DNA from: Deltaproteobacteria bacterium
GTDB taxonomy: Bacteria > Myxococcota_A > Polyangia > Polyangiales > Houyiibacteriaceae
NCBI GenBank assembly: GCA_034670305.1
Contig: JAXMNT010000002.1
Location: forward strand, 32,001 to 96,000
Reading direction: 5' to 3'
DNA: 64,000 nt
Both the position numbers and the translations under genes were made by a program. Below the pieces are notes generated by a model. It did no database searches, was not told the DNA's origin, and worked only from the letters and a program-made list of their open reading frames with translations. Of the stretch, positions 5,905-63,795 are shown in pieces. Each line of letters starts with the position of its first letter. Positions within the stretch are counted from its first letter, which is position 1.

Positions 5905-6987
5905 CTACGCCGCTTCGACGTCCGCTTCCGCAACCGACGAACTCACCGCCACTGGCTTCGCCAGGCGCATCTCCGCGATGCGGGTGCGGGCGGCGGGCTT
6001 GAGCGTCAGCCACATGAAGTCGCGCACGTCGAGCAGGTCGCGCGGGGTCAGGTCGAGCGCTTCGATGCGTTCACGCACCCCCAGGGCCATCGTGCGCATG
6101 CGCTCGTACAGCAGTCCCATCGGCCGGTCCGAACACCGCAGGCCCGGAGCCATCCAGAGCGCCTGCCGCTGGAAGAGTTCCGGCTTCACGACGATGTGTT
6201 CGTCGGGCTGGGCGACTCCGGCGAAGAAGGTCGCGAGCTCCCAGCTCGGGGTCTGACCCATCGTGCGCTCGAGCGTCGAGACGAATCCATCGAGACGCTG
6301 AACGAGCGGGGACGTGCCATAGAGCAATGCTCGAAGCGACTGCACCACCACCTCGTGGTCCTCTTCGGCGATCGCGAGGAACACTTTGCGTTCCTTGGCG
6401 CCCACCAGGTCCGAGAGCTTCAGGACCGCACCCATGCCCTTCATCGCGTCGGCAACGGGACCGGACAACTTCTTGCGGGTGAGCTCCTTGGCGGCGCGGT
6501 CGACCACCCCATCGCGGTGGCGCTTCAGCGGTCGCTTGCGGCCATCGCTCCGGTGCGTCTCGGTGTAGGTCTCGGCCATGAAGCCGCCATCGAACATCTC
6601 GAAGAAGTACGCGATCTGCTCGTCGAGTTGGATGGGCCGCACGCGGCGGGCACCGGGTTTGACGTCCTCCTCCGGCAACATGCTGCGGAGCGCGTCGACC
6701 AGCTCCATCGTCACGTCGTACGGGCGGTCCACCGCTTCGAGGAGATGGTAGAAGCCCTTCTTGAACGAGCGCATGCGGCCGTCCTGGAACTGCAACATCG
6801 CGCGGTCTTCGATCCGTCGCACCAAGATGGCCAGTCCCCACTGGGTTCGTTTCGAATGCCGGACCAGTGCCGGCATGCCGTTCTCGAGCGTCTCGGTCTC
6901 CTCTTCGGAGGTGGGCGTCGCGGCGGGCGCATCCAAAACGGACGGTTCGAGGGTCGGGGCGGTCTTCTTGGTATCGGAATCGAGCAA
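5905..6987 (-). CDS. Hypothetical protein
   Basis: Coding-like part of ORF 5905..7263 ([15 protein letters not shown]...[14 protein letters not shown]). Start uncertain: TTG 6987 or ATG 6876. Confidence 0.7.
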
Positions 6988-7343
6988 GCGGGTTCTCCAG
7001 CAAGGGTAGGATGCGCCAGACGCACCGAAACCCACGACACGAACCAGTGTTCGAACGGGGCGAGCGGAACGGCCTCGACAGAAGCGTCGAGGGGGCGCGG
7101 CGGGGTCCGACGAGAGGGCGCACGCAAGCGCACCACACCAAGCCAGACGGTTGTCAGAGCAGCGCATCATCGACACCCGAAAACCAGGCGGGAGACGTGC
7201 CGCGTGTCGTCGGGCAGAACCCATCGACTCGTAGACTCTAACACAGCATCGCAGGATCCGCAAGTAAAACAGGGCAATCCGAAGACCACGCCCTGATCCC
7301 GCCTGCGATCACGGGCGTTTGTTCGCGGCGTTGCGTTGCGTGC

Positions 7344-23601: not shown

Positions 23602-24573
23602 GTGACGACGGCTGAGCCCGACGCGCTCAAACGCGCCCTGATCGAGAGAGCCGAAGCGCTCGGCTTCGAACGCTGCGGGTTTGCGCGCGCCGAGGCGCTG
23701 ACGCCGGAGGGCGGCCAGCTGGACGCGATGATCGAAGCGGGCCGCCACGGCGACATGGAGTGGCTCGCCGACACCAAGGACGTGCGCGCCGATCCGAACC
23801 ACCCCGGCATGCTCCCGGCCGCCCGCACCGTGGTCGTGCTGGTCGCGCCCTACGCACGCGCCGATGCGCCGCTGCTCCCGCCGCCCTTCAAAGTCGCCCG
23901 CTACGCGGCCGGCCGCGACTACCACAACGTTCTGCGCAAGCGGCTGCAGAAACTCGAGAAGTGGCTGCGCTCGATGGGCCACGAAGTCCGCCACTCGGTC
24001 GACTCCCGCCCAGTGCTCGAACGCGCGTGGGCCGAGCGTGCGGGCGTCGGGTTCGTTGGCAAGAACTGCTGCCTCATCGTCCCCGGCCTCGGCTCCCACC
24101 TCTTCCTCGCGACGCTGGTGACGTCCGCCGAGATCGCGCCGGACCCGCCGATGAAGCGACGCTGCGGCGATTGTCGGCTCTGCCTCGACGTGTGCCCGAC
24201 CGACGCGTTCGTGGAGCCGCGGGTGCTCGATGCCCGTCGATGCATCTCCTACCTGACGATCGAACAAGAGGGCGAGATCGAACCGGCGCTGGCCGCGCGG
24301 CTGGATGGATGGGTCTTCGGCTGCGATGCCTGCCAAGACATCTGTCCCTACAACCGCACGTCGTTGCCGGACGAATCCACCACCGAGCCGTTCGCCCGGC
24401 ATCCACGCTGGGATGTGCCGGTCGAGCGGCTCATGGGGATGAACGACCACGAATTCGACCAGTGGTCGCTCGGATCGCCCCTGCGCCGAACAGGCCGAAC
24501 TCGGTTTCAGCGCAACCTGAAGCTGGTCCTCGCCCACCCGCCCAAGTCCCCCGACGGAGACGGGCGACATTGA
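23602..24573 (+). CDS. queG: tRNA epoxyqueuosine(34) reductase
   Basis: ARYAAGRDYH, VDSRPVLERAWA, CGDCRLCLDVCPT, RCISYLTIE, FGCDACQDICPYN. Start GTG 23602 or ATG 23572. Confidence 0.95.
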   Translation: MTTAEPDALKRALIERAEALGFERCGFARAEALTPEGGQLDAMIEAGRHGDMEWLADTKDVRADPNHPGMLPAARTVVVLVAPYARADAPLLPPPFKVARYAAGRDYHNVLRKRLQKLEKWLRSMGHEVRHSVDSRPVLERAWAERAGVGFVGKNCCLIVPGLGSHLFLATLVTSAEIAPDPPMKRRCGDCRLCLDVCPTDAFVEPRVLDARRCISYLTIEQEGEIEPALAARLDGWVFGCDACQDICPYNRTSLPDESTTEPFARHPRWDVPVERLMGMNDHEFDQWSLGSPLRRTGRTRFQRNLKLVLAHPPKSPDGDGRH

Positions 24574-24605
24574 CCGCGTGGCGCCCGGTCCCTTACGTTG
24601 ATCGC

Positions 24606-25457
24606 ATGCTTGATTGGTTTTCGCGGGGAGGCCTGACGTCCTGCCTCGTGGTGTGTGTGGTTGGCATCGGCTGCGGCGACGACGATCGACCGGGCGGCAT
24701 GGACGCCGGGCGCGACGCCACCACCGCGGATGCCGGCGTGGATGCACCCTCCGGATGCATGAGCGAAGCCGAATGCGACGATGGCTTCGCGTGCACGATC
24801 GACATGTGCACGGTCGACCGAATCTGCCGCCACACCCCACTCAACGAACGGTGCGAAGACGGCGAGCTCTGCACGCTCGACCGCGGATGTGCCTCGGGCT
24901 GCGTGACCGGCGAAGACTGCGACGACGGCAACTTCTGCGACGGGGTCGAGCGCTGCATCGCCGGCGACTGCTTCGAAGCCCTCGAACCCGTCGACTGCGA
25001 CGACGGCAACGCCTGTTCGATCGACTCGTGCGACCCCGAGGCCGGCGCGACCGGCGCGTGTTCGTACGACGTCAGCGCGTGCGACGCCGGCGTCCCGATG
25101 GGCGACGGAGGCATGCCGCCGGTCGATTTCGACCCCGACGTGCACTACGAGGGGCGCTTCGTGGTCGCCCCCGCACCGAGCCTCGGCTGTCCACCGGCCA
25201 GCTACTCCTTCAGTGAAGTGCGCATGACCATCGTGGGCGACGAGCTGCGGATCACCGCCGACCGCTTCACCCTCATCCAGAACCCGCGACCGACCGGCAA
25301 CATGTTCGACGCGAGCAGCACCGCGGACGCGAACTGCAATCCGGTCCGTCTGGTCGGTTCGTTCTCCGACTCGAACCTCTTGAGTGCGACCTGGACAGCG
25401 AGCTGCAGCGGCTTTTGCGGCAACCAAACCCGAGAAATCGTGGGAGAGCGAAGATGA
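24606..25457 (+). CDS. Cys-rich lipoprotein with CDDGNxCTxDxC (Dictyostelium CTDC-like) repeats
   Basis: Signal ending VVGIGC; CDDGFACTIDMC, CDDGNFCDGVERC, CDDGNACSIDSC; beta-rich C-terminal domain. Confidence 0.8.
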   Translation: MLDWFSRGGLTSCLVVCVVGIGCGDDDRPGGMDAGRDATTADAGVDAPSGCMSEAECDDGFACTIDMCTVDRICRHTPLNERCEDGELCTLDRGCASGCVTGEDCDDGNFCDGVERCIAGDCFEALEPVDCDDGNACSIDSCDPEAGATGACSYDVSACDAGVPMGDGGMPPVDFDPDVHYEGRFVVAPAPSLGCPPASYSFSEVRMTIVGDELRITADRFTLIQNPRPTGNMFDASSTADANCNPVRLVGSFSDSNLLSATWTASCSGFCGNQTREIVGERR

Positions 25458-26668
25458 CTGCGTTTCGAGAAGCCAGCACCGGACGTGACTGGAAGATCCT
25501 CATCGGTGTGCTGGTGTGCTTCGGGGTCGCGTGCGGCGGAGACGACGACCGGAGCCGGATGGACGCGGGCGGCGGCGGGCGCGACGGCGGCGGAAGCTGC
25601 GAGAACGACGAAGACTGCGACGACTCGGCGGCCTGTACGATCGACTCCTGCGGGGTCGGCAACACCTGCCGCTACGATCCGATCGCGGAGCGTTGTCCCG
25701 GACAGATCTGCGAGCCCTTCCGCGGCTGCGTGGACGAGCCGAGCTGCACCTCGGACGAAGCGTGCGACGACGGGTTCAGTTGCACGCTCGACAGCTGCGG
25801 TGTGGGTGGCGAGTGCCGGAACATGCCGCTCGACGAGCTGTGTGAATCGGTCGGTCCGGGATCCACATGCGCACCGGCAACGGGCATGGCGACCACCGGC
25901 TGCACCGAAGCCACCGGTTGTGCGGGCGACGAGGACTGCGACGACGAGGTGGAATGCACCCTCGACGTCTGCGGCGTGGACGCGATGTGCGACCACACGC
26001 TGATCGATGAGCGCTGCCCCGAGGGCGAAGCCTGCACCCTCACCGGCTGCTTCGCACCGATGGACTGCACCGACAGCGACATGTGTCAGGACGGCGACTT
26101 CTGCAACGGCGCCGAGTTCTGCGAAGACGAGTTCGGCTGCCGCCCTTCGCCGGCGCCACGCGTCTGCATGGACACCGACGACTGCACCATCGACAGCTGC
26201 GAACCCTCACTCGGTGACGGCGGCGCGTGTCTCTTCCGCTGCGACACCTCCCGCCCCGAGTGCGACTGCCCCGTCGCGGAGACTCCGTGCGACGGAATCT
26301 TCGACATCTCCCCGGTCCCGACCCAGCGCTGCGCCGACTTCGGGAGCGCCCAGGTCGACTACTCGGTCTCAGAGGTCGAGTTCTCCTGCATCGGATCGGT
26401 GCTCAGCGTCGACGCCCGCGACGTGCCGAACCCCTCGATCAACTCCGCGCTCACCCAGTCCCCCCGCTCCGGCGACGACACCTTCATGGTGGAAGCCGTG
26501 GTCGAAGGTGGCTGCGAAGAGCGCTACCGCATCACCGCCACCTTCGTCGACGAGACGACGTTCATGGGCACCTGGGAAGCCGAGTACATCGAGGTCAGCG
26601 GTCTCGGCGAGTGCGCCTTCAGCGGTTGTCGAAACCAAACCGTCGCCATCACCGGCACCCGCCGCTGA
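25454..26668 (+). CDS. Cys-rich lipoprotein with CTDC-like repeats, paralog of the preceding gene
   Basis: ATGA overlap; lipobox FGVAC; five CDDxxxCTxDxC-type repeats; shared C-terminal C.NQT..I.G.RR. Confidence 0.82.
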
Positions 26669-57485: not shown

Positions 57486-57492
57486 CGCGGAT

Positions 57493-57871
57493 GCCCGTGC
57501 CCGTGCCCGCGTGCCCGTGCCCGTGCCCGTGCCCGTGCCTGCTGGGCGCGACTTTGAACCCCGAAGCAGACGCCGAAGCCGATCCCGAAGCCGATCCCGA
57601 ATCCGAAGCCGAATCCGAAGCCGAATCCGAAGCCGATCCCGAAGCCGATCCCGAAGCCGATCCCGAAGCCGATCCCGAAGCCGATCCCGAAGCCGATCCC
57701 GAAGCCGATCCCGACCCCGTTCCCGAAGCCGATCCCGATCCCGATCCCGAAGCCGAAGCCGAAGTCGAAGCCGAAGCCGAAGCCGATCCTGAAGCCGAAT
57801 CCGAAGCCGAGCCCGAAGCCGAAGCCGAAGCCGAAGCCGAAATCCGATCCCGAAGCCGAAGCCGAATCCGA
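57493..57871. repeat. Hexamer tract (GTGCCC)n + (CCGAAG/CCGATC/CCGAAT)n
   Basis: About 370 bp between convergent genes, with a 12-nt higher-order unit CCGAAGCCGATC. Confidence 0.95.
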
Positions 57872-57899
57872 CCCCCGACCCTGAGTTTTGAAAGGCGAC

Positions 57900-60251
57900 T
57901 CAGTCCGGTGAGGGGGGCGAGGCTGGGAGGGCGCGGGCGGTGACGCGGTAGGCGCCGGTCGTGCCGGGAGCGTAGCTGTTGGCGAAGATGCGGTAGGTGC
58001 CGGTGGTGGGGGCGCGCCAAACGAGGCGGCTGTCGGTGCCGAGCGCGTCGTCGTTGCGCGCGATGCGTTCGTCCTCTGCGTCCACCAAGAGCAGGTAGGT
58101 GTCGAAGTCCTCGCTCGACATCGAGATCACGTAGGTGCGTCCCGCTTCGACCTCGATCGGGTACGGGTCGTAGAAGCTCTCGTCCCGCGCGCGCGCGTCG
58201 CCTTCGGCCAACAGCCCGGTCTCATCCAAGAGGAGCGCGCCGGCGAGCACGTTCTGCAACGTCAGTGTGTACGCACCGAGCCCCTCGTCCTGGGTCGAGA
58301 GGTTGGCCGCGACGAACACGACGCCGGTCGAGGTCGCGGTGTAGACGACACGGCTGGCCGCCTCGTTCAGTGGCGCCCCGGCCTGCAGGACCGTGCCTTC
58401 ATCGGACATCACGAAGGTCGCCGGTTGGAAGGACTCGGCGCCCATCTCGATCAGGTACGTCTCCCCCAGCGTGACCGGCAGCCAGTAGCGGTCCATCGGT
58501 GTGTCGTCTTCCCAGAATCGTGAAGACTCCGCATCGAGCACGCCTTCGACGGCCACTTCCGCCCGCAGCTCCGGATCGGTCAGCGCGGTGACGCTCAAGA
58601 CGTAGGCGCCCGTGCGCGCCTCCTGCTCGGAGGTCGCCACGAGCTCGACCTCGCCGGACGCCTCCGCACGCCATACGATCTGCGCCGTCGATCCGAGGCC
58701 TGGCGCGTCGTCGCTCGCCGCCATCTCCCAACCCCGCGCGCTCCGCAAGACCAGCGCCGGATCGACCGCGCGGCTCCGCATCGTCGCGACGTAGGTGGTG
58801 CCCGCTTCGACCTCCAGCGGGTACGCGTCCAAGTAGCTGCCGGTCTTCGGCAGCCGCTCGTCGGTCGCTTCCAGCAGCCCTTCGATCGGCGCACCGAACC
58901 CGAGCGTGGCCACAACCGGCGCCACCGGTCGCGGTTCCGGCTCCGGCCGCAGAACCACCACGAGCAGCGCGGTCAGGGTCGCGGCGAAGAGCAGCGCGAA
59001 GCCCCACGCCAGGAGCCGCGCACCGTCGCGCGCTCCACCCGGCGCACCGTTGCGCGGCGGCTCCCCCGCCTCTTCGAGCCGCTCGTTGTCGCTCTCCGAG
59101 TCCTCGAGCGCGCGTTTGGGAGACTGCACGCCCCACTCAGAATCGAGGGCATCCAGCGCCTTCACCAACTCGGTGGCGGTCTGAAAACGATCGACCGGCC
59201 TCTTCGCGAGCAACGTGTCGAGGATGCGCTGCAGACCCTCGTGCAGGTCGGGCACGGGCGCGGGCGCCTGAGTGGCGTGGGCCATGAGCTTCTTCAGCGT
59301 CAGTCGTTCCGCGAACGGCGGTGCACCGGTGAGCAAGAAGTAGAACGTGCAGCCGAGCGCGTAGAGATCGCTTCGGGCATCCGCGGCGTTCGGATCGTCG
59401 GCCTGTTCGGGCGCCATGTAGTCGAGGGAACCGACCAGCTCGTCCGCCCAGCGCGGACTGCGCTCGCCGCCCATCACGAGCCGCGCGAGACCGAGGTCGA
59501 CGACCTTCACCGTGCCCTCCCCGCGTCCGTCCTTGCTCGGCGGCTCGGGTGCCAAGAGCAGGTTCGAGGGTTTCACGTCGCGGTGCACGAGGCCGGCCGC
59601 GTGCGCGTGCTGCAGCCCCGCCGCAGCCTGGCGCAGATACGCCGCCGCGCGGGGTGCATCGAGCGGACCTTCGGCCGCCACGAGTTGCTGCAGATCGCCG
59701 CCCGGCACGTACTCCATCACGAGGTAGAGGCGGCCCTCGTGTTCGCTCGCGTGCATCGCCGCGACGACGTTGGGATGGGCGCCGAGCTTCGCGACCGCCT
59801 TGACCTCTTCCCGGAACCGCTCGAGGGCGCGCGGGTCCTCGGCGAGCACGGGGCGCATGACCTTGATGGCCACCTCGCGGTCGAGCACCGCGTGACGGGC
59901 GCAGTAGACCTCCCCCATGCCGCCGTAGCCGAGGAGCCGCTCGACCTCGCATTCGCCGAGTTTGGTGCCCGGGGAGAGGAAGCGCCGCTCGCTCGGCTTG
60001 GCGCCTTTGCGCGCACCTGCCGTCTCGTCCATCGACGCGTCCAGCTGGATGGACTGGGCGGCACCGAAGAGCGACCCGAGCACCTCCAGCTGACCCCGCA
60101 ACTCGTCGTCGAGCGCCATCCCATGTTGCTCGGCCCAGGCTTCCGGGGCCGGTGCGTCGCCGTGTTCGAGCGCCTCGACGTACCCATCCAGAAGCGCCAC
60201 GCGGGCCTCGACACTCGGCTCTTCGCTTTCGGGGCTCACGGAGGCGGCCAC
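57900..60251 (-). CDS. Hanks-type Ser/Thr protein kinase with TM and three extracytoplasmic PPC-like domains
   Basis: GYGGMGEVY, VAIK, HRDVKPSN, DLGLA, YMAPEQ, SDLYALG; TM LLAWGFALLFAATLTALLVVVL; DxYxxEVEAGxTY...NDD repeats. Confidence 0.93.
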   Translation of the reverse strand: MAASVSPESEEPSVEARVALLDGYVEALEHGDAPAPEAWAEQHGMALDDELRGQLEVLGSLFGAAQSIQLDASMDETAGARKGAKPSERRFLSPGTKLGECEVERLLGYGGMGEVYCARHAVLDREVAIKVMRPVLAEDPRALERFREEVKAVAKLGAHPNVVAAMHASEHEGRLYLVMEYVPGGDLQQLVAAEGPLDAPRAAAYLRQAAAGLQHAHAAGLVHRDVKPSNLLLAPEPPSKDGRGEGTVKVVDLGLARLVMGGERSPRWADELVGSLDYMAPEQADDPNAADARSDLYALGCTFYFLLTGAPPFAERLTLKKLMAHATQAPAPVPDLHEGLQRILDTLLAKRPVDRFQTATELVKALDALDSEWGVQSPKRALEDSESDNERLEEAGEPPRNGAPGGARDGARLLAWGFALLFAATLTALLVVVLRPEPEPRPVAPVVATLGFGAPIEGLLEATDERLPKTGSYLDAYPLEVEAGTTYVATMRSRAVDPALVLRSARGWEMAASDDAPGLGSTAQIVWRAEASGEVELVATSEQEARTGAYVLSVTALTDPELRAEVAVEGVLDAESSRFWEDDTPMDRYWLPVTLGETYLIEMGAESFQPATFVMSDEGTVLQAGAPLNEAASRVVYTATSTGVVFVAANLSTQDEGLGAYTLTLQNVLAGALLLDETGLLAEGDARARDESFYDPYPIEVEAGRTYVISMSSEDFDTYLLLVDAEDERIARNDDALGTDSRLVWRAPTTGTYRIFANSYAPGTTGAYRVTARALPASPPSPD

Positions 60252-60297
60252 GGTATCGCAAACCGGTGTGGTCCGGTCGAAACGTGCAGTCCATCCA

Positions 60298-60912
60298 TCA
60301 GGTCATCGCCGAACGAAGTTGTTTGAGCGCGCGGACCCAGAGTTGCCGGATGGCCGCCTCCGTCTTGTCGAGGCGCGCCGCGATGTCGCGGTGGGAAAGC
60401 CCCTCGAAGTGCCGAAGCTGCAAAACCTCTCGGTACTCGAGCGGAAGGCGGTCGATGGCCTCGAGCAGCTGCATCGCCTCCTGGCGGGTGGCGGCCTGTC
60501 GGCTTGGGGTCGGCTCGTGCGCCGGAAGGCGGGGCTTGTCGCCCCCCGGCCGACCGGTCTCCACCACGCTTCCCGCCACCGCCTTCTCCGCCGCGACGTT
60601 GCGGCGGTCCTGGTGCCAGAAGCGCAGGAGGTTGCGCGCCTCGTTGCGCACGATCGTCACCAGCCACTGCTGCCACTCGCCGGGCGAATCTCCGCGGAAC
60701 TGATCGAAGCGTTCGATCGCGGCGAGCAGACTCTGCTGAACCACATCGGTCACGTCGACCTTGCCCTCGAGCCGACCGGCGAGCACGCTCCGCGCGACCG
60801 CCCTCAGGTACGGCCGCAGCCCGTCCGCCGCCTCCCAGAGCGCATCCCGGTCGCCTTCGCGTGCGCGCACCAGCGCGTCGCGAATCGCCTCGTCTCGCTC
60901 CTCCCGGGTCAT
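60298..60912 (-). CDS. ECF sigma-70 factor
   Basis: Region 2 LRPYLRAVA...KVDVTDVVQQ...FDQFRG...WLVTIVRN; region 4.2 LPLEYREVLQLRHFEGLSHRDIA. Confidence 0.93.
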   Translation of the reverse strand: MTREERDEAIRDALVRAREGDRDALWEAADGLRPYLRAVARSVLAGRLEGKVDVTDVVQQSLLAAIERFDQFRGDSPGEWQQWLVTIVRNEARNLLRFWHQDRRNVAAEKAVAGSVVETGRPGGDKPRLPAHEPTPSRQAATRQEAMQLLEAIDRLPLEYREVLQLRHFEGLSHRDIAARLDKTEAAIRQLWVRALKQLRSAMT

Positions 60913-60948
60913 GCCACGCGAGCATACCGCGCCCCGGCCCCGCGCCCC

Positions 60949-61082
60949 GTCGGCGTCGGCATCGGCGTCGGAGTCGGCTTCGGCTTTCGGCTTCGGCTTC
61001 GGGTGTCGGCTTCGGCATCGGCATCGGATTCGGCTTCGGATTCGGCATCGGCATCGGCATCGGCATCGGCGTCGGCATCGGC
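60949..61082. repeat. Hexamer tract (TCGGCN/TCGGAT)n
   Basis: Seen directly between the caspase and ECF genes. Confidence 0.9.
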
Positions 61083-61154
61083 CCCCCAAAAGGAACCGCC
61101 CGGACCGCTCACGCGGCCCGGGCTCGTTTCCCGTTCGTTCGACCTTCGTCGACC

Positions 61155-62993
61155 TCAGCGCGCCGTCACCGTCAGGTCGTAGTTGCCGGTCGTCGCCGGT
61201 GCGTAGGGCTGGATGGCGATGACGTAGGTGCCGCTCGTCGGCGCGGTGAACTCGATGCGGCTCGAGAGGTCGTCCGGCGCGGCGTCGTCGTTCTGCGCCA
61301 CCACCCGGTCGCCCTGACGGAGCGTCATGACCGTGTCGGTGTGGCCGGAGACGCGGGTCTCGAGGAGGTAGCGGCGACCCGCTTCGACCTGGACTTCGTG
61401 TTCGGCGCCGCCGGTGCCGAGCGCGAGGCCGGTCAACGCAAGCACGTGGGTGCCGCCGGTGCTGGGCTGCGCGTTGGTCAGCGGCTGTCGGCGTGCGGCC
61501 AGCGTGTAGGTGCCAAGCGTCTCGGCTGCGTAGGGACGGACCTCGATGGCGTAGGTGCCTGCGGTCGGCACGTCGAACTCGACCCGGCTCGCGAGGTCGT
61601 CGGGCGAGACATCGTCGTTCTCACCGACCACGACGCTGTCGCGAAGCACGCGGACGACCGTGTCGGCCTGGCCCGTGAGCGCCCTCGTCTCGAGGATGTA
61701 GTGACCGGGCGCGAGTTCCAGCGACTGGGTGTCGCCCGCGGCGGTGAGCTGCAATCCCTGGCGTTCGAAGACGAGCTCGGTCGCGGTGGCCGGGGTGTCC
61801 GTCTGGGTCGGCGCGGCATCGAGCTGCGCGACGCGCAGACCGTAGCTGCCCAAGGTGCTCTCCGCGTAGGGACGCACCCGCACTTCGTAGCGGCCGGTGG
61901 TCGGCGCGGTGAACTCGACGCGGCTCGACAGGTCGCCCCGCGAGACGTCGTCGTTCTCGGCGACGACCTGTCCGTTGTGCACGAGTGCGAGCACGGTGTC
62001 GGCGGCGCCACCGAGCGCGTTCGTCTCGATGCGGTACCGCATGCCGGCAGTGAGTTCGATGGGGTGCGTGTTGCCGCTTGGGCTGAGCTGCTGTCCGAGG
62101 AAGCTCGCCACCTCGGTGCCGACCACGGTGGCTTGAGGAGCGACGAACTCGCCGGTGCCTTCGCCGACCTGCATCACGACCATGTCGGGACGTACGCCGG
62201 TGCGCTTGATGTCGATGAACTGGAAGCCGACGTTGCGGCCGGCCGGGTCCGACGCTTCGATGCTCGGAAGCCGGGCGGCCTCGCGGCGGATGAAGACCTC
62301 GATCTCGAGCGCGGTCAGCATGCCATCGCTGCTCTGCCCAAAGACGCCGTTGGCGGCCCCGTCCGCGCGGCCTTCGAGGGCCTGGGCGAGCAACAGACTG
62401 AGGTGGCCGCCCGCCTCCTGTGCGGGCACGGCGCTGGTCAGATCCTCATCGCTCGAGAGGAGGGTCATGCGACCGGCGCGGGCCCCGACGTCGAAGAGGA
62501 ACCCTCCGCTGAAGCAGGCGTCGATGCCGACCAGCGTGAGCCGGCTCTTGGTCCCGTCGAGGGCCGTGGCGAGCTCGTCGTCCGAGAGATCGCCGTCGTA
62601 GAGCGACAACACTTCGTCGAGCTGGTCGCCTTCGTCGCTGCTCTGATCTGCCACCGGCGAACCATGGCCGCTGAAGAAGAAGACCACGTTGTCTCCCTCG
62701 GTCGCTTCACGCTGCACCGTGGCAAGCGCCTGAATCACATTGGCGCGGGTGGCGTCGGCGTTCAGGAGCAAGTGCATCCGCAGCTTCTCGGCGGGCACGT
62801 TGCGAACGAGCGCCCGACCGATGCGTTCCGCGTCCACGTCCGTGCGTGCCAGCGGCGAACTCGGGTAGTCCGCGATGCCGACCAGCACCGCGTGGGTGCG
62901 GCCGGCCATCGGCGCCTCCGCATGCCCAAGGCTCGGGAGAAGAAGGGACGCTGCGATCGTGAGCGCGGCGAGAAGTCGTTGAATCTTGAACAT
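61155..62993 (-). CDS. Secreted caspase-family (C14) peptidase with three C-terminal PPC-like domains
   Basis: Signal peptide MFKIQRLLAALTIAASLLLPSLGHA; AVLVGIADY, FFFSGHG (His), IDACFSG (Cys); 3x VxxNDDxxxxDLxSRxEFxxPTxGxY; GGAGG SD. Confidence 0.88.
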   Translation of the reverse strand: MFKIQRLLAALTIAASLLLPSLGHAEAPMAGRTHAVLVGIADYPSSPLARTDVDAERIGRALVRNVPAEKLRMHLLLNADATRANVIQALATVQREATEGDNVVFFFSGHGSPVADQSSDEGDQLDEVLSLYDGDLSDDELATALDGTKSRLTLVGIDACFSGGFLFDVGARAGRMTLLSSDEDLTSAVPAQEAGGHLSLLLAQALEGRADGAANGVFGQSSDGMLTALEIEVFIRREAARLPSIEASDPAGRNVGFQFIDIKRTGVRPDMVVMQVGEGTGEFVAPQATVVGTEVASFLGQQLSPSGNTHPIELTAGMRYRIETNALGGAADTVLALVHNGQVVAENDDVSRGDLSSRVEFTAPTTGRYEVRVRPYAESTLGSYGLRVAQLDAAPTQTDTPATATELVFERQGLQLTAAGDTQSLELAPGHYILETRALTGQADTVVRVLRDSVVVGENDDVSPDDLASRVEFDVPTAGTYAIEVRPYAAETLGTYTLAARRQPLTNAQPSTGGTHVLALTGLALGTGGAEHEVQVEAGRRYLLETRVSGHTDTVMTLRQGDRVVAQNDDAAPDDLSSRIEFTAPTSGTYVIAIQPYAPATTGNYDLTVTAR

Positions 62994-63110
62994 GGTGCAC
63001 CTCCGCGGTTCAGGCGCATGCGCCCGACCGGAAACCCCGCGGTGAAGCGCGCCCTCATCGGCCTTCGCTCCTTCCCGCTCACCACAACGGAAACCGTGGG
63101 GCCGGAGATG

Positions 63111-63135
63111 TGACGAAAAAACTTCAGTCGGTTCC
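63111..63135 (-). promoter_or_regulatory. Candidate ECF-type promoter for the caspase gene
   Basis: Minus strand reads GGAAC-N16-GTCA (GGAACCGACTGAAGTTTTTTCGTCA), about 120 nt upstream of the ATG. Confidence 0.45.
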
Positions 63136-63200
63136 ACAACGTGAAAAACCCGAACGGTATTGCTGGGGGCACGGCCCCCAAACCCCGTCCCGGTGACACG

Positions 63201-63399: not shown

Positions 63400-63795
63400 C
63401 TACGCGAGGGCGCTCGGCATCTCCGGCGGCGCGAGCGGGCCGCCCGGCAGCCAGCACGCCTCGTCGTCCCACATCAGCGTCTCGCAGCAGGCGTTGAACG
63501 CATCCCAGTCGCACATCCCGTCGCCATCCCCACCGAATCCGTTGCAGTCGGGATCGGGGGTACACGGCCGCGCATCCGCCGCGCCCGCATCGGCAAAGAA
63601 CGCATCCGGGAACACCTCTGGGGCGTCCTGGCCCGCATCGCGCAGCACGAGGGCATCGTCGGTCGGCCCACTGTCCGATCCGGTGGTGGTGATCTCGTGA
63701 CCGCCGTAGCAGGCGCTGCCGCCGACCATCGCCAAGGCAATGGTCACGGTTCGGGCAGCACGGAGGGCACGACGGCGGATTTCATCGGTGGTCAT
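63400..63795 (-). CDS. Small secreted Cys-containing protein (probable lipoprotein)
   Basis: RRRALRAARTVTIALAMVGGSAC signal; DAG linker; C-terminal CC...W...C..GPLAPPEM. Confidence 0.7.
   Translation of the reverse strand: MTTDEIRRRALRAARTVTIALAMVGGSACYGGHEITTTGSDSGPTDDALVLRDAGQDAPEVFPDAFFADAGAADARPCTPDPDCNGFGGDGDGMCDWDAFNACCETLMWDDEACWLPGGPLAPPEMPSALA

Follow-up and report, generated by a model that had tools for sequence, protein, structure and literature searches.

What keeps the gene of an exported caspase-like protease beside the genes of a sigma factor and of a receptor kinase? The question is raised by a 64,000-nucleotide stretch of DNA from a Deltaproteobacteria bacterium (the window, meaning the whole stretch analysed), which has about 70% G+C and corresponds to positions 32001-96000 of contig C2 in the 7.9-Mb assembly of 105 contigs of genome G000. 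Genes coding for a C14 peptidase (the caspase below), an extracytoplasmic function (ECF) sigma factor and a Hanks kinase follow each other there head to tail (Table 1). A preliminary description of the window had announced three co-oriented genes and quoted peptides from the repeats of the caspase and of the kinase; the genes are found where it placed them, all on the minus strand, and both peptides are present in the translations. The three genes very probably form one functional unit. We propose that this unit is a lineage-specific circuit that senses a cue outside the cell and responds by secreting the protease, an assignment to which, in the form detailed below, we give an even chance of being correct.

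Conservation of the three-gene module

A sample of 301 genomes of the order was searched with a profile of the kinase ectodomain. Ten of them have the ectodomain with all three domains, five belonging to the family of the window, one to a second family and four to a third. Two of the ten (G197 and G114) have it on contigs too short to judge. In all eight genomes that can be judged the ecf gene lies directly upstream of the kinase gene, and in seven of the eight the caspase gene is adjacent as well, either co-oriented (G000, G013, G024, G221) or divergent (G004, G036, G153). A ninth locus, L049, on a 2-kb metagenome contig, shows ecf divergent from the caspase gene. The synteny put forward in the preliminary description is thus found, with two orientations of the caspase gene, and no flanking gene beyond the trio is common to these loci at E <=1e-10. 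Orthologues of all three proteins also map to contigs of identical sizes (89,567, 11,427, 8,236 and 15,425 nt), which suggests further linked copies of the trio, and on several short contigs two of the three occur together. The nearest relatives come from uncultured Sandaracinus sp. and from metagenome-assembled genomes (MAGs) of Sandaracinaceae, Polyangiaceae, Myxococcales and Deltaproteobacteria.

Association with the caspase gene is restricted to this lineage. None of 79 more distant metagenome loci coding for a caspase with PPC domains has a kinase domain and two have a weak ECF-like open reading frame (ORF), in a survey where 52 loci had at least 3 kb of flanking DNA on at least one side and 27 on both, and where the kinase was searched by its catalytic domain only. 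The link between the caspase gene and the ecf-kinase pair is specific to the Sandaracinus-like clade, a small set of uncultured bacteria from soil and water.

Sequences bracketing the caspase gene

In the otherwise diverged regions upstream of the caspase genes a bipartite motif is conserved, GTCACA-N12/13-CGGTTTCC, found in eight of eight genomes and, as a variant with one substitution, in L049, which makes nine of nine loci. In the window the motif, preceded by a T-rich tract, stands about 95 nt upstream of the start codon of the caspase gene. Whether the genes are co-oriented or divergent, the motif points the same way with respect to the caspase gene, and it is present in G108 despite a 31-kb separation of the caspase gene from the two others. 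The form with the CGGTTTCC half occurs once in the 7.9 Mb of G000, a looser pattern that allows CGGTGTCC having a second match on C19; among 80 metagenome loci, one site besides L049 matches the motif with at most one substitution. No copy is found upstream of ecf in any locus, which we read as indicating that the ecf-kinase unit would not be autoregulated through this motif. The ECF-type promoter of the preliminary description, GGAAC-N15-CGTC, survives in one half: GGAAC is missing from the orthologous upstream regions, and the conserved motif overlaps CGTC. As a -10 element CGTC was rejected, its spacing to the upstream half being inconsistent (8 nt in G153).

The other end of the caspase gene carries a strong terminator-like hairpin: 10 of the 11 pairs of its stem are G-C, and a T run comes next. 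In each of the four co-oriented loci (G000, G013, G024 and G221) a hairpin with a T tract separates the caspase gene from ecf, so the caspase gene probably has its own transcript, separate from that of the two other genes. The placement of the motif and of the terminator makes the caspase gene look like a specifically regulated target, and we find it rather likely to be the target of the circuit. The motif could then be the promoter read by this ECF sigma factor.

Short sequences are also shared near the ecf start. The element CCGTATCCTG is conserved about 10-15 nt before it in G013, G024 and G221 (L028, L029 and L042; the corresponding stretch of the window is 60913-60950), and a GATATC box is similarly located in the divergent loci. 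It is tempting to speculate that either could be the -10 element of a leaderless ecf-kinase transcript.

The ECF sigma factor

The sigma factor consists of sigma-70 regions 2 and 4 only (Pfam r2, r4 and r4_2), the composition of the ECF type (group 4), and scores 92.4 bits with TIGR02937 for a cut-off of 42.9 bits. Its best NCBIfam model, by far, is the planctomycete TIGR02984 with 159.6 bits, below the cut-off of 183.75 bits. It has no close paralogue in G000, the closest other ECF sharing 35% amino acid sequence identity.

The preliminary description had drawn an analogy with EcfK and EcfP, whose group, ECF43, has lost the D-x-x-D signature of sigma-2.2 and has a conserved Thr and a QTTA motif (PMC13147305, PMC8999054, both consulted in part). 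Another trait of ECF43, a neighbouring Hanks kinase with no anti-sigma gene, is found in the window. However, region 2.2 reads K-V-D-x-[S/A/T]-D-V-V-Q-Q in 44 members of the family, and since D-x-x-D is retained the ECF of the window is not of the EcfP/EcfK kind. Activation in the manner of these proteins is not borne out.

A candidate phospho-acceptor is found elsewhere, in the linker that joins sigma-2 to sigma-4. Ser137 is invariant in the 44 family members. Of the 27 other ECF-like ORFs of G000, 14 carry an Asp or a Glu at the corresponding place. By description Ser137 resembles Thr106 of EcfK, a putatively equivalent linker residue that is critical for activation and whose counterpart is acidic in other sigma factors (PMC13147305, in the part available). 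By this analogy Ser137 might be the switch residue, an attribution about which we remain doubtful.

A predicted N-terminal sigma-binding arm on the kinase

Residues 1-98 of the kinase, the N-terminal module, are conserved in 13 orthologues. A profile of the module retrieves 48 proteins from 1.84 billion representatives, in which it is always N-terminal, and the 27 scanned matches of at least 400 residues are all Hanks kinases, with diverse C-terminal sensors (TPR, WD40, DUF4384, STAND NTPase and others). Planctomycetota have the module in 19 of 251 sampled genomes, at 26 places, and an ECF of the same family adjoins it in 11 of these 26 loci. Among 401 Myxococcota genomes, for which the best 12 candidates per genome were scored, it occurs only in the genome of the window and as one weak match.

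Complex prediction paired the ECF (alignment of 44 sequences) with residues 1-98 of the kinase (alignment of 13 sequences) and gives a score of 0.82, against 0.01 for the best of three controls. Among solved complexes 116 of 157 attain a mark of 0.82, against 2 of 215 among mismatched pairs, a calibration that is rough here given the custom alignments. At least 62% of the contacts are common to the runs, and the predicted local distance difference test (pLDDT) of the partner is at least 70. The predicted interface comprises residues 35-43 and 85-89 of sigma-2, residues 139-203 of sigma-4, and residues 134 and 139 flanking Ser137. The prediction supports binding of the N-terminal module to the ECF, in a modelled geometry that resembles class I anti-sigma domains such as the one of DdvA/DdvS (PMC11506125, seen in part). 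The kinase itself thus probably supplies an anti-sigma-like arm. With such an arm on the kinase a separate anti-sigma gene would not be needed; the trio of the window and those of the other loci neither contain nor adjoin an anti-sigma-like ORF, in agreement with the preliminary description.

Two further observations concern this part of the module. Stand-alone N-terminal modules lacking a kinase domain lie beside an ECF of the same family in L132 (G663:C96) and L134 (G850:C47), in ORFs of 190 and 294 codons, and may be free-standing sigma-binding arms. In L029 (G024), a small extra gene with a lipoprotein-type signal at its start occupies the ~750-nt gap between ecf and the kinase gene (~6300-7030, minus strand); it does not look like an anti-sigma factor.

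The exported caspase-like protease

The caspase ORF extends to position 63137, and the gene start is placed at the Met of position 62993, where the signal peptide begins. This Sec-type signal, read by eye, covers residues 1-25 (62919-62993) and ends in GHA/EA; the orthologues have N-terminal signal-peptide-like sequences, also read by eye. The protein matches Peptidase_C14 (PF00656) over residues 33-168 with 42.9 bits (cut-off 21.4) and PPC (PF04151) with 66.9 bits (cut-off 25.9). Its AlphaFold model (pLDDT 87.7) shows a caspase fold followed by three beta-sandwiches on low-confidence linkers. Foldseek gives as top matches GSU0716 (3bij, E 1.4e-10), 7qp1, 4f6o, MALT1 and metacaspases, with a probability of 1.00, and a profile search of the PDB returns GSU0716 (2e-18) and metacaspase-4 (1.3e-14). 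The His-Cys dyad is intact, H110 of the SGHG motif and C160 of the DACFSG motif being invariant across 56 aligned relatives. The preliminary reading of a C14 peptidase with signal peptide, intact His/Cys motifs and three C-terminal repeats is in this way upheld. The product is, as predicted from its sequence, a metacaspase-like cysteine protease exported by the Sec pathway.

Metacaspases, orthocaspases and GSU0716 share with the caspase of the window the fold and the His-Cys dyad, and the acidic stretch that follows the catalytic His in metacaspases and GSU0716 aligns with that of the window protein. In metacaspases this stretch binds calcium, and cleavage takes place after Arg or Lys. Unlike these proteins, the caspase of the window has a signal peptide, C-terminal PPC domains and, as we propose, a dedicated sigma factor and kinase for its control. 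The combination of C14 and PPC domains has a wide distribution, which includes Planctomycetes, Hyphomonadaceae and Erythrobacteraceae; most of 67 relatives carry both PF00656 and PF04151, under names such as "caspase family protein", and the databases surveyed returned no characterised exported protein of this architecture. The number of PPC copies ranges from 1 to 4 among the orthologues.

Matches to the caspase at E <=1e-10 occur in 16 of the 24 other genomes of the family; outside G013, G024 and G004 they are matches to the caspase domain with about 40% identity. G000 itself codes for two paralogous lipoprotein caspases, at C3:~24000-26596 and C15:~107100-110082, both on the plus strand (loci L002-L008), in which the order is reversed: a lipoprotein signal, 4-5 PPC domains and a C-terminal C14 domain. 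No ECF or kinase gene is found beside either of them.

The receptor kinase and its ectodomain

The kinase scores 167.5 bits with Pfam Pkinase, which places it among the Hanks-type Ser/Thr kinases, and, in its catalytic motifs (Gly loop, VAIK Lys, HRD, DxG and APE), the residues G108-G113, K130, H223-R224-D225, D252-L253-G254 and P281-E282 are invariant in 13 orthologues. Its model (pLDDT 76.6) has three helices at the N-terminus, which are followed by the kinase domain, a single membrane helix and, outside the membrane, the three beta-sandwiches K1 to K3, modelled with a pLDDT of ~80-92. K1-K3 are internal repeats, with hhalign probabilities of 99.3 for K1-K3 and 98.1 for K1-K2. The membrane Ser/Thr kinase with three similar outer domains that was first described is therefore recovered by the model and the repeat comparison.

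The kinship of the outer domains is less direct. With Pfam PPC, K3 reaches 21.9 bits where the cut-off is 25.9, and neither K1 nor K2 gives any Pfam match at E up to 0.1. Profile-profile comparison gives hhalign probabilities of 98.8 (K1), 96.7 (K2) and 99.2 (K3) with the PPC domains of the paralogous caspases, which themselves exceed the Pfam cut-off (85.3 and 49.9 bits), and of 91.6, 78.2 and 97.0, respectively, with those of the neighbouring caspase. Non-kinase homologues of the ectodomain also carry PF04151. The ectodomain is PPC-like by profile-profile homology and by its modelled beta-sandwich fold, and the PPC label given to it earlier holds on these grounds and on its homologues, not by the Pfam cut-off.

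A tree of 43 PPC-type domains from G000 and four orthologous loci, built without hits under 25 bits (the weak ones on C9 and C12), places the 15 kinase domains in one clade (Shimodaira-Hasegawa-like approximate likelihood ratio test, SH-aLRT, 99), in which repeat positions group across genomes. The 16 domains of the neighbouring caspase form a clade (SH-aLRT 92) located inside the PPC domains of the paralogous caspases and other G000 proteins. The claim that kinase and protease carry the same repeats fails on both counts, the kinase domains having a clade of their own and being closer by hhalign to the paralogous lipoprotein caspases.

Kinases with a PPC-like ectodomain amount to 14 protein clusters in sequence searches, all from the Sandaracinus-like lineage, and the other relatives of the ectodomain are non-kinase proteins with multiple PPC domains. 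PPC domains of secreted proteases such as collagenases, the thermolysin-like E495 and keratinases are likewise C-terminal beta-sandwiches on exported enzymes, where they aid substrate binding and are removed stepwise, as described for the Grimontia collagenase (PMC6168687) and for protease E495 (PMC3327674) in the parts of these reports consulted. Unlike them, the PPC-like domains of the trio serve additionally as the sensor of a receptor kinase. A Planctomycetia MAG has, at L037 (1357-4740), two adjacent secreted trypsin-like serine proteases whose C-terminal domains are of the PPC subtype of the kinase ectodomain (28-43% identity); the N-terminal module is absent from this genome.

A total of 193 ORFs of G000 have a Hanks kinase domain and 28 are ECF-like (own hidden Markov models, E <=1e-5). 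Besides the ECF of the trio, four ECF-like ORFs lie within 1.5 kb of a kinase; the N-terminal module is absent from all these kinases.

Proposed circuit and alternatives

In the circuit that we propose, ecf and the kinase gene would be one unit with its own, probably constitutive, expression. The N-terminal arm of the kinase would hold the sigma factor in the manner of a class I anti-sigma domain. A cue acting from outside on the PPC-like ectodomain, most likely a polymer or protein of the kind bound by the PPC domains of secreted proteases, would activate the kinase, which would phosphorylate the bound sigma factor, Ser137 being the best candidate site. Released or activated, the sigma factor would read the GTCACA-N12/13-CGGTTTCC promoter and drive the monocistronic caspase gene, whose product is exported. 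We infer the reading of the motif by this sigma factor, the phosphorylation of the ECF, the residue concerned and the inhibitory nature of the binding, and likewise the nature of the cue and the substrate of the protease. A more specific version is tentative and in our opinion probably too precise: the kinase would hold the ECF at the membrane and free it by phosphorylating a linker serine beside the interface, a mechanism that may extend to planctomycete-type pairs sharing the N-terminal module, with one exported caspase-like protease as sole output here. If true, this would be release by phosphorylation, distinct from the sigma-2.2 charge switch of ECF43 and from proteolytic anti-sigma cascades, and the circuit would be minimal, with one sensor, one promoter and one enzyme.

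Several observations weigh against the proposed circuit. The genomes that carry the trio are all metagenome-assembled and closely related, so that the 8 or 9 loci are not independent, and in G108 the caspase orthologue (55% identical) is not adjacent to the pair, lying 31 kb off on the same contig. The N-terminal module has neither zinc ligands nor a Pfam match, anti-sigma families included (residues 1-100, E up to 0.1; zf-HC2 and RskA types), and its high complex score may reflect likeness to the solved sigma/anti-sigma complexes that exist rather than real binding. The retained D-x-x-D of the sigma factor means that polymerase binding may need no phosphorylation. The conserved motif departs from the textbook ECF consensus (GGAAC/CGTC) and could be the site of another regulator. 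Finally, the PPC domains of the kinase have no special kinship to those of the caspase, which removes the simplest argument for a shared ligand.

This last point bears on the model of the preliminary description in its strict form, in which kinase and protease share PPC repeats and hence a ligand, or shed PPC domains of the protease are sensed by the kinase, and an EcfP/PknT-like switch follows. Domains of the PPC superfamily are indeed present outside the cell on both proteins, PPC domains of secreted proteases bind substrates and some are removed stepwise (PMC6168687, PMC3327674, in the parts consulted), and the trio is conserved. However, the separate clade of the kinase domains (SH-aLRT 99), nearer to the PPC domains of the paralogous caspases, the caspase PPC count of 1-4 while the kinase always has three, and the want of the ECF43 hallmark (D-x-x-D lost, conserved Thr) make this strict form improbable. 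Another possibility is that the exported caspase is the input and not the output: it would cut the kinase ectodomain or make the ligand of the kinase, which would be mainly a membrane anti-sigma factor whose cleavage frees the ECF, like a site-1 cut or the CHAT domain of DdvA. Both the caspase and the ectodomain are outside the cytoplasm, the acidic sigma-2.2 residues are retained so that release alone might suffice, and in DdvA/DdvS a caspase-like periplasmic domain is already known to take part in ECF control (PMC11506125, as far as its consulted part goes). Yet a motif before the caspase gene and not before ecf, together with the gene's own terminator, is the pattern of a regulated target, the invariance of all catalytic residues of the kinase is unexpected if its activity is irrelevant, and G108 retains the motif even though its caspase gene is unlinked. 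We consider this wiring unlikely, though less so than the shared-ligand model; input and output roles are also compatible and might be combined in a feedback loop.

Two further readings fit the data poorly. The trio could be an anti-phage or cell-suicide system with the caspase as killing effector, as generic PADLOC matches (the caspase at E 1e-14 and many kinase models) and a weak match to the NCBIfam model "caspase, EACC1-associated type" (42 bits for a cut-off of 140) might indicate. These PADLOC matches cover generic catalytic domains only and the sigma factor matches none, so that no defence system is called; moreover the signal peptide implies that the protease acts outside the cytoplasm, and no other defence genes are kept nearby. 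We hold this function to be very improbable. The same applies to chance neighbourhood of genes that have no functional link. With 193 Hanks-kinase and 28 ECF-like ORFs in G000 a kinase neighbour is not a rare event, but adjacency survives the inversion of the caspase gene and spans three families of the order, the remaining gene neighbours are not retained, and none of the 79 distant PPC-caspase loci has a kinase. The sense-and-secrete circuit, with the caspase as output, is the assignment that we favour.

Features and surroundings of the module

The tandem arrays located 3' of the kinase gene (57492-57875) mark the 3' boundary of the module. Past these arrays lie genes for an EamA transporter and a Na/Ca exchanger, neither of which is kept beside the trio elsewhere. 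Upstream of the module, at 63400-63795 on the minus strand, lies an ORF for a 131-residue Cys-/Asp-rich polypeptide with a lipoprotein-like N-terminus; it has no Pfam match and is not kept beside the trio in the other loci. Arrays of period 6 are frequent in G000, where the program TRF finds 772 of them; after merging, 675 arrays of at least 60 nt (median 167 nt) cover ~119 kb, or ~1.5% of the genome. The unit class AAGCCG/CGGCTT accounts for 370 of the hexanucleotide arrays of G000, and two arrays bracket module genes.

Table 1. Positions of the module and of its parts in the window; residue numbers refer to the encoded proteins.
Feature	Position	Strand	Basis
Exported metacaspase-like C14 peptidase gene (P0001, 612 aa)	61155-62993	minus	Pfam, model
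Caspase fold, residues 33-275	62169-62897	minus	AlphaFold model
His110 codon; Cys160 codon	62664-62666; 62514-62516	minus	SGHG / DACFSG motifs
Caspase PPC domains, residues 288-392, 404-504, 513-612	61818-62132, 61482-61784, 61158-61457	minus	
Promoter-like bipartite motif GTCACA-N12-CGGTTTCC	63089-63114	minus	Conservation before caspase gene
Intrinsic-terminator-like hairpin directly 3' of caspase stop codon	61098-61123	minus	
Hexanucleotide tandem array, unit TCGGCA, ~22 copies, between terminator and ecf start	60950-61082		
ECF sigma factor gene (P0002, 204 aa)	60298-60912	minus	Pfam/NCBIfam
Candidate phospho-acceptor Ser137, sigma-2/sigma-4 linker	60502-60504	minus	Invariance
Receptor Hanks kinase gene (P0003, 783 aa)	57900-60251	minus	Pfam, model
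N-terminal three-helix module, residues 1-98	59958-60251	minus	Helices 12-29, 36-42, 49-73 in model
Kinase domain, residues 102-363	59163-59948	minus	Pfam
Membrane helix, residues 410-433	58953-59024	minus	Model
PPC-like outer domains K1 448-558, K2 562-668, K3 671-775	58578-58910, 58248-58568, 57927-58241	minus	
Hexanucleotide tandem arrays, units TGCCCG and CCGAAG, ~52 copies, just 3' of kinase gene	57492-57875		

Relation to known systems and significance

EcfK/PknS of Xanthomonas citri and EcfP/PknT of Vibrio parahaemolyticus likewise associate an ECF with a single-pass receptor Hanks kinase, and both pairs lack an anti-sigma gene of their own. At its N-terminus PknS is extended by ~83 residues for which 3-4 helices are predicted, and the consulted parts of PMC13147305 and PMC8999054 give no function for this extension. 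In contrast to the ECF43 proteins, the ECF of the window keeps D-x-x-D and is nearest to planctomycete TIGR02984, its partner senses through three PPC-like domains and not TPR repeats, and the proposed target is one exported protease gene instead of a type VI secretion system or a polymyxin regulon.

Other kinase-linked ECF groups keep a DAED-like motif and may work differently (PMC8999054, partial text). ECF62 kinases are encoded at +1 and possess a single membrane helix, and some of them carry an N-terminal zinc finger (PMC7826278, partial text). The planctomycete kinase-linked groups ECF59, 61, 62 and 217 have no autoregulatory promoter motif upstream of the ECF according to the available parts of PMC7826278 and PMC8999054, and the same parts of this literature yielded no experimentally studied member of these groups. 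The ECF of the window is akin to the planctomycete proteins in that its family adjoins kinases with the same N-terminal module in Planctomycetota. It differs from ECF59-62/217 by its occurrence in Myxococcota and its score under the TIGR02984 cut-off, and its kinase by an N-terminal module that has no zinc ligands or Pfam match and by a PPC-like sensor in place of WD40 or TPR; a target gene and a motif can, moreover, be proposed for the trio. Compared with DdvA/DdvS of Myxococcus xanthus, the helical bundle is fused to an active-looking kinase and has no zinc site, and the caspase, whose His-Cys dyad is intact, is exported as an enzyme in its own right, whereas DdvA has an incomplete CHAT domain within the anti-sigma factor. 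Among the papers listed by the literature searches, none joins an ECF sigma factor to a metacaspase or orthocaspase, or deals with Sandaracinus caspases. Nor does any of them describe a Hanks kinase that has an anti-sigma domain, or a zinc-less arm of that type, fused to it; the N-terminal zinc finger of the ECF62 kinases comes closest (PMC7826278, as far as consulted). This type of circuit is partly new, a variation on kinase-linked ECF signalling and not a separate category.

Kinase-linked ECF sigma factors outside ECF43 are numerous, notably in Planctomycetes and myxobacteria, and the literature surveyed gives neither a mechanism nor targets for them. The module is a compact test case, with one ECF that has no close paralogue, one kinase, one motif before one gene, a candidate residue in Ser137 and a predicted sigma-binding arm. 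If the arm is an anti-sigma domain, it would account for the missing anti-sigma genes of such systems and would offer a function for the N-terminal extension of PknS. A caspase-family protease located outside the cell and placed under the dedicated transcriptional control proposed here would point to feeding, predation or matrix turnover rather than to cell death.

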